Made by a program: the position numbers and the translations under genes
Origin: Escherichia coli
Lineage (GTDB): Bacteria > Pseudomonadota > Gammaproteobacteria > Enterobacterales > Enterobacteriaceae
DNA: 265 bases
Assembly (NCBI RefSeq): GCF_003334255.1
Contig: NZ_QOWU01000274.1
Reading direction: 5' to 3' (one strand)
Notes under the pieces: generated by a model
What the model saw: the letters and a program-made list of their open reading frames with translations, nothing else
The model's database searches: none
What the model was told of the DNA's origin: nothing
Part shown: positions 1 through 265 of the stretch, in pieces
Layout of the letters: each line of letters opens with the position of its first letter
Numbering within the stretch: the first letter of the stretch is position 1

Positions 1-265
1 GAACTTCTTAACATGCTGGATATTAAAGGAAAAATCATCACAACTGATGCGATGGGTTGCCAGAAAGATATTGCAGAGAAGATACAAAAACAGGGAGGTG
101 ATTATTTATTCGCGGTAAAAGGAAACCAGGGGCGGCTAAATAAAGCCTTTGAGGAAAAATTTCCGCTGAAAGAATTAAATAATCCAGAGCATGACAGTTA
201 CGCAATGAGTGAAAAGAGTCACGGCAGAGAAGAAATCCGTCTTCATATTGTTTGCGATGTCCCTG
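1..265 (+). CDS. ISAs1-family DDE transposase (H-repeat-associated protein, ISEc1-like), internal fragment, partial at both ends
   Basis: Seen in sequence: frame 1 (codons at 1-3, 4-6, ...) is open across the entire window, 88 codons with no stop. The other two + frames are interrupted (TAA at 9-11 in frame 3; TAA at 116-118 in frame 2). All three - strand frames contain stops (for example, forward TTA at 106-108 is a TAA on the reverse strand). Translation: [88 protein letters not shown]. Established knowledge, recalled from memory and not verified by search: this matches the central portion of E. coli H-repeat-associated ISAs1-family transposases (YhhI/YdcC/YbfD/YbfL paralogs). The specific paralog cannot be assigned from 265 bp, so no gene symbol is given. 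True start and stop codons lie outside the window. Confidence 0.85.
1..265 (+). mobile_element. Internal portion of an ISAs1-family insertion sequence (H-rpt / ISEc1-like); element termini are not in the window
   Basis: Inference from the CDS identity: ISAs1-family elements are about 1.2-1.4 kb and carry a single transposase ORF filling most of the element. The window lies entirely inside that ORF, so no inverted repeats or target-site duplications can be seen. The 40% GC (106/265 by hand count) is consistent with a horizontally acquired element in a roughly 51% GC enterobacterial host. Confidence 0.75.

Follow-up and report, generated by a model that had tools for sequence, protein, structure and literature searches.

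Background

The 265-nt stretch of Escherichia coli DNA analysed here, which we refer to as the window, raises the question of which genes surrounded it in its source genome. A first-pass annotation made from the letters had placed the window inside an insertion sequence (IS), an H-repeat of the ISAs1 family. It had also proposed that this IS is flanked by an Rhs element or a surface-polysaccharide gene cluster, with anything unusual at the locus lying in the flanks rather than in the window. The association of H-repeats with Rhs elements is established in the classical Rhs literature of the 1990s, and H-repeats are also found in Salmonella and Vibrio.

Identity of the window

Over its whole length, the window is the interior of an H-repeat IS (ISEc1/ISEc5-like, ISAs1 family), containing neither an IS end nor flanking sequence. 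Frame +1 translates without a stop through all 88 codons, and megablast aligned the window at 100% identity (E = 1e-135) to genes annotated as "ISAs1 family transposase". The 88-aa peptide scored 99.7 bits against the NCBIfam model NF033564 (ISAs1 family transposase), for which the cut-off is 70 bits, and the full transposase of one exact-match copy, L001, scored 412.2 bits. The open frame, the identical genes, and the model score bear out the assignment to an H-repeat that had been made from the letters. Positions of the window on the IS were taken from L001 and are listed with the other features in Table 1.

In the full protein, Pfam identified PF13808 (DDE_Tnp_1_assoc) at aa 8-94 (2.4e-32), followed by PF01609 (DDE_Tnp_1) at aa 102-343 (3.1e-30), and the transposase would be expected to work by DDE chemistry. 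The Asp within the conserved TTDAMGCQ motif is probably the second catalytic Asp. An antisense ORF of 55 aa was considered as a gene and rejected, being purely mechanical and with no annotation over it in 21 annotated E. coli loci.

Table 1. Positions of features in the window and in the loci discussed in the text, and content of the Rhs tips (window positions count from its first letter; other positions are those of the locus named)
Feature	Sequence	Position	Strand	Details
Transposase gene, internal fragment	Window	1..265	+	IS nt 613-877; codons 157-244 plus one base; 378-aa DDE transposase
Conserved motif containing TTDAMGCQ, DDE_Tnp_1 domain	Window	40..71	+	Translation
Putative second catalytic Asp (aa 172)	Window	46-48		Within TTDAMGCQ
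Antisense 55-aa ORF	Window	38..205	-	ORF listing; wholly within the sense transposase frame
Transposase CDS of an exact-match copy	L001	11533-12669
IS of an exact-match copy	L001	11389-12679
Rhs gene upstream of the IS	L009	4558-8811
H-repeat at the yafV site	L008	9389-10679
H-repeat in the O15 O-antigen cluster	L012	9369-10679
H-repeat in the O2/O50 O-antigen cluster	L013	9379-10689
Solo H-repeat	L015	9388-10679
Upstream "ISAs1 family transposase" pseudogene	L003	10304-11430
Tandem Rhs units	L017	2802-16038
Start of N-terminally truncated Rhs fragment	L017	8678
Inner IS end	L017	8679
T6SS effector island with ISAs1 remnant	L014	5595-10145
yafV-site tip 1				DUF6973, then YdcD
yafV-site tip 2				YkuD-like, E = 4.8e-5, then two small ORFs
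yafV-site tip 3				Unassigned; weak Peptidase_M91-like match, E = 0.0026, not significant; then dsORF-h1
nfrB-site orphan tip				Zincin-like toxin domain, then 69-aa ORF

Structure and age of the element

The complete element is ~1,291 bp long (1,290-1,292) and carries a single ORF of 1,137 nt that encodes 378 aa. Its ends lie outside the window and were set by aligning copies in unrelated flanks, being read in copies identical to the window. Homology between copies begins at CAGGGAAAGATCAC and ends at GTAATCTTGCCCTG, and the terminal inverted repeats are imperfect, with the left repeat CAGGGAAAGATCAC and the right repeat CAGGGCAAGATTAC matching at 12/14 positions. Elements of the ISAs1 family measure ~1.2-1.5 kb and have short imperfect terminal inverted repeats, and the 1,291-bp element agrees with them in both.

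The first-pass annotation had suggested defining the insertion boundaries by inverted repeats and a target-site duplication. While the repeats could be located, the duplication was absent at the Rhs-linked, O15, and solo copies that were checked; it was found, as a perfect 10-bp CCTTATATAG, only around the copy in the O2/O50 cluster (L013). At the yafV site, the right inverted repeat is degraded to CGGGGTAAGACTAC (L002-L005, L009, L011), and a premature stop at codon 18 is common to most of these copies, with the region of the window still 100% identical to that of intact copies. Given the missing target-site duplications, the degraded right repeats at yafV, and the stops at codon 18, these copies therefore point to long residence rather than recent insertion, and we infer that the Rhs-linked copies are old, vertically inherited residents and not fresh insertions.

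A genome paper states that transposition of H-rpt has never been observed (PMC3032704); set against that statement, the duplication around L013 is indirect sequence evidence of past transposition.

The H-repeat is not a new element. The H-rpt of E. coli Rhs elements, represented by ISEc1 (yhhI, RhsB) and ISEc5 (ydcC, RhsE), is the same element, with a length of 1,291 bp and a 378-aa transposase, and PGAP gives several exact copies the name "ISAs1-like element ISEc1/ISEc5 family transposase". The K-12 H-rpt has the same placement, immediately after rhs and the ORFs that follow it, and differs from the window in its allele by a single mismatch. ISAs1 of Aeromonas salmonicida and IS1358 of V. cholerae O139 belong to the same family by NF033564 and the DDE_Tnp_1_assoc/DDE_Tnp_1 pair. 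They come from other species and are more distant in sequence. IS1358 of V. cholerae O139 is included among the members of the ISAs1 family in a published listing (PMC5674738).

Abundance in E. coli

The window was matched by megablast in 5,314 of 5,426 complete E. coli genomes, at 20,871 places in total (median 4 per genome, maximum 9), 20,852 of them chromosomal. In 3,617 records, the best match reached 99% identity or more. The feature beneath the match was always annotated as an ISAs1-family (ISEc1- or ISEc5-like) transposase. The best K-12 copy (ydcC) is 99.6% identical to the window, with 1 mismatch, and the copy annotated yhhI in strain YY76-1 is likewise 99.6% identical. Exact copies were seen in 13/60 evenly spaced rows of the match list, from which we estimate that at least 1,100 records carry one.

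Since exact copies of the window occupy at least three sites on the chromosome, its source locus is not assignable, and naming that locus from the letters of the window was ruled out. A 265-nt internal fragment of an element whose central segment is shared by several chromosomal sites does not point to one of them. The exact allele is nonetheless informative, in that it predicts Rhs/T6SS neighbours and not an O-antigen cluster.

Rhs context of exact copies

Annotated neighbourhoods were read for exact-match copies in 15 genomes; the search lists the best place per genome only, and these 15 contexts are a small, non-random sample of the exact copies. In all of them (15/15), an Rhs core gene is found immediately upstream of the IS, in the same orientation, which supports, for identical copies, the Rhs element that had been proposed as the flank. 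The Rhs gene has a variable tip and small downstream ORFs, and in most cases vgrG or a T6SS cluster comes before it. Eleven of the 15 copies are at the yafV site, where the order is T6SS cluster, hcp, vgrG, rhs, dsORF-h1 / ydcD / small ORFs, IS, and yafV. Two are at the nfrB site of O157:H7 genomes (cusS, vgrG, a DcrB-like gene, rhs, orphan tip, 69-aa ORF, IS, nfrB), and the remaining two are at the RhsE/pptA site. The gene upstream of the IS in L009 scored 2,647 bits on NF041261 (RHS_core, cut-off 2,000 bits), has YD repeats, and also matches TIGR01643 and TIGR03696. Near-identical copies named yhhI (99.6%) and ybfD (99.2%) follow rhsB and rhsC, the K-12-type arrangement. Beside identical copies, the search of flanking ORFs that the first-pass annotation had suggested thus turned up the RHS core, YD repeats, variable C-terminal tips, and small downstream ORFs.

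Queries joining 120 nt of IS to 150 nt of backbone found the IS|yafV junction in 3,259, the IS|nfrB junction in 2,287, and the IS|pptA junction in 2,380 of the 5,426 genomes. All three are fixed, widely inherited positions. The T6SS/Rhs-yafV site, the commonest among the exact matches, carries no Rhs element in K-12 (PMC3032704, Table 6), and the same paper associates H-repeats with Rhs C-terminal tips (PMC3032704).

The flanks of exact copies resemble Rhs polymorphic toxin elements with orphan rhs-CT/rhsI modules: they contain an RHS core with YD repeats, C-terminal tips that are unrelated to one another, and small ORFs downstream. The window is not itself part of the toxin system and belongs to the IS that terminates the Rhs element. 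Three unrelated Rhs tips were found upstream of the same IS at the yafV site (Table 1). The small ORFs behind the tips are putative immunity genes, and judged by sequence the layout would be that of an ordinary polymorphic Rhs-CT/immunity locus with orphan modules. Rhs-CT/RhsI toxin-immunity pairs and orphan modules have been described (PMC3150448), and a matching layout of Rhs tips was also described by Jackson et al. 2009 (PMC2935791), where the IS is not discussed. As the first-pass annotation had said, the window holds nothing unusual; the flanks hold ordinary, known Rhs toxin/immunity modules. Both the identity of the H-repeat and its placement beside Rhs genes match long-established knowledge, and the analysis finds this widespread E. 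coli repeat in the position known from classical work on Rhs.

Two features of these flanks concern other IS sequences and duplicated Rhs units. At the yafV site of L003, and also of L004, L005, L018, and L019, the ydcD cassette is accompanied by an upstream pseudogene that bears the annotation "ISAs1 family transposase". We considered whether it was a duplicated H-repeat and rejected this, as it has 67% nt identity and belongs to a different, yncI-like ISAs1 member. L017 has two tandem Rhs units with an H-repeat copy after each, and an N-terminally truncated Rhs fragment starts next to the inner IS end (Table 1). This arrangement looks as if a second Rhs unit had been duplicated or inserted in association with the IS.

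With family membership, element anatomy, fixed junctions, and the Rhs adjacency of identical copies all observed directly, we consider it very probable that the window comes from the middle of the transposase gene in a 1,291-bp H-repeat on the chromosome of a non-K-12 E. coli, in a Rhs-linked allele that most probably forms the right boundary of a T6SS-associated Rhs element. Such an element would run from vgrG through the rhs core with its variable toxin tip, one or more small immunity-type ORFs, and sometimes orphan tips, to the H-repeat and then the conserved backbone. The H-repeat would be on the same strand as rhs, and the backbone site would most likely be yafV, otherwise nfrB or pptA. 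The unseen source locus would accordingly be one of the yafV, nfrB, and pptA sites, with the proviso that adjacency was observed for identical copies in public genomes and that an unsampled exact copy could sit in an O-antigen or solo context.

Copies outside Rhs elements

H-repeats were also found away from Rhs genes, and these copies define the alternatives. In the first, the window would come from a "solo" H-repeat with housekeeping neighbours whose adjacent Rhs element has been lost. L015 is such a case: a 97.0% copy stands between ansP and a truncated yddH, and within 10 kb there is no Rhs, toxin, or polysaccharide gene, only housekeeping genes. This locus lacks the Rhs element, pptA, and a portion of yddH. 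A deletion adjoining the IS is likely because the right flank matches the sequence at the pptA end in L006. The 97.0% class accounts for ~6 of the 60 evenly spaced rows (~10%) and is usually the sole copy in its genome, as in L015. Flanks of housekeeping genes alone over about 10 kb were what the first-pass annotation had named as refuting its proposal; they do occur in this class, and in none of the 15 exact copies. The class also differs from the window by 8 bases, and no exact copy that was examined is solo, so we regard a solo origin as very unlikely.

At the same ansP-yddH site in another strain (L014), PAAR, VgrG, an M35 peptidase, and a hypothetical gene are followed by an ISAs1 remnant of 144 nt at 89.6% identity. 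This is a different T6SS effector island with the same kind of IS scar.

The second alternative places the window in an H-repeat between galF and gnd, within a cluster for O-antigen or another surface polysaccharide. In V. cholerae, IS1358 is located in the O139 O-antigen region. H-repeats in O-antigen clusters are found in E. coli as well. In L012, an intact 98.9% copy lies in the gap between galF and wzx, the first O-antigen gene of the O15 cluster, on the same strand. An ops-like AGCGGTAGCGTG motif precedes its left end by 8 nt, and there is no target duplication; transcription of the O15 genes would need to cross this IS or begin inside it. In L013, a 96.2% copy lies inside the O2/O50 O-antigen cluster, with the CCTTATATAG duplication around it; its reading frame is now interrupted by a stop at codon 185, and two more ISAs1 fragments come after it. 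An ISAs1 ORF, annotated as "H repeat-associated protein", has also been reported within a novel O-antigen cluster of EPEC (PMC9705854). The two copies that we read nevertheless mismatch the window, at 3 positions for O15 and 10 for O2/O50, and placement between galF and gnd among wzx, wzy, or glycosyltransferase genes was seen for 0/15 exact copies and only for the non-identical L012 and L013. The polysaccharide half of the first-pass proposal thus holds for the 98.9% and 96.2% alleles and for none of the 15 exact copies. With 3 and 10 bases separating the O-antigen alleles from the window, the Rhs context is preferred, and an O-antigen origin is rated very unlikely, marginally below a solo one.

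The least probable source, with a very slim chance, is a plasmid- or phage-borne copy or a species beyond E. coli/Shigella: 20 plasmid records do match, two of them at 100%, and relatives at 92-97% aa identity exist in other species, yet 20,852 of the 20,871 E. coli places are chromosomal, plasmid origin was rejected as rare (20/72,556 records), one exact record is a 4.8-Mb replicon that is probably a mislabelled chromosome and the other is 7.3 kb long, and the relatives are divergent in protein-level comparison.

Mosaic structure of the copies

Returning to the Rhs-linked element that we favour, full-length copies at different sites are 95-98% identical, and their differences cluster in nt 1-520 and past nt 913. 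The segment between, IS nt ~517-913, contains the whole window and is invariant among nfrB-, yafV-, and pptA-site copies (L001, L009, L008, and L006). The RhsB (yhhI) copy L020 and the inner pptA-site copy of L017 deviate at a few positions in the centre, with L020 differing from the window at a single base. O-antigen and solo copies carry 4-11 differences in the IS centre. Taken at the level of sequence comparison, this mosaic pattern suggests gene conversion among the Rhs-linked copies.

The right third of the IS is site-specific, and 13/13 yafV copies share one haplotype there, whatever cassette lies upstream. One copy at the yafV site, L008, combines two types: its left third is pptA-type at 19/21 informative sites and its right third is yafV-type at 16/16. 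The split of 19:2 versus 0:16 gives a Fisher p of 1.2e-8, and the breakpoint falls between nt 463 and 913. By this pattern, the IS of L008 is clearly recombinant between left and right. Upstream of the IS, a block consisting of the Rhs tip, ydcD, and the yncI-like ISAs1 pseudogene is 96-99.6% identical between the yafV site and the pptA site (L006) and ends exactly at the left terminus of the H-repeat. At the yafV site, the three unrelated cassettes likewise all end precisely where the IS begins on its left side. Together these observations are consistent with recombination inside the IS.

We tentatively propose that the H-repeat may act as a portable right homology arm, with the rhs core as the left arm, for swapping whole toxin-tip/immunity cassettes between Rhs loci and strains through homologous recombination, and that the invariant centre may be the crossover or gene-conversion tract. 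The idea is put forward because cassettes abut the left terminus, the yafV and pptA sites share a block, the right third is site-specific, and L008 is recombinant. We hold it to be possible though doubtful, as it draws on one recombinant in a small sample and gene conversion unrelated to cassette exchange is an alternative. If true, it would add a modest mechanistic detail on how polymorphic toxin repertoires diversify. Our literature search, outside which the older Rhs literature fell, found no paper proposing a homology-arm role for the H-repeat.

Related elements in other species

A scan of one genome per species with a degenerate back-translation of the conserved window motif (Table 1) returned 16 loci with ISAs1-family transposase genes, mainly from Escherichia, Citrobacter, and relatives. 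This contig scan returned no E. coli or Shigella record, though the motif pattern matches the window. In protein-level comparison, relatives at 92-97% aa identity were found in E. albertii, E. whittamii, Citrobacter, and Pseudocitrobacter. In many cases the contig breaks off within the IS; among the approximately nine loci with usable flanks, five have VgrG, Rhs, or T6SS genes near the IS, and a panel of O-antigen proteins gave no match.

In two loci, L024 (a Citrobacter MAG) and L031 (Escherichia sp.), the IS is at the contig edge with only the downstream side visible. Its neighbours there are a 188-aa ORF and a cluster of flagellar FliF/FliI genes, which is probably the lateral Flag-2 system. 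Two others, L028 (Lutispora saccharofermentans) and L036 (a Bacillota MAG), carry ISAs1-type transposases of Firmicutes with only 38-40% aa identity.
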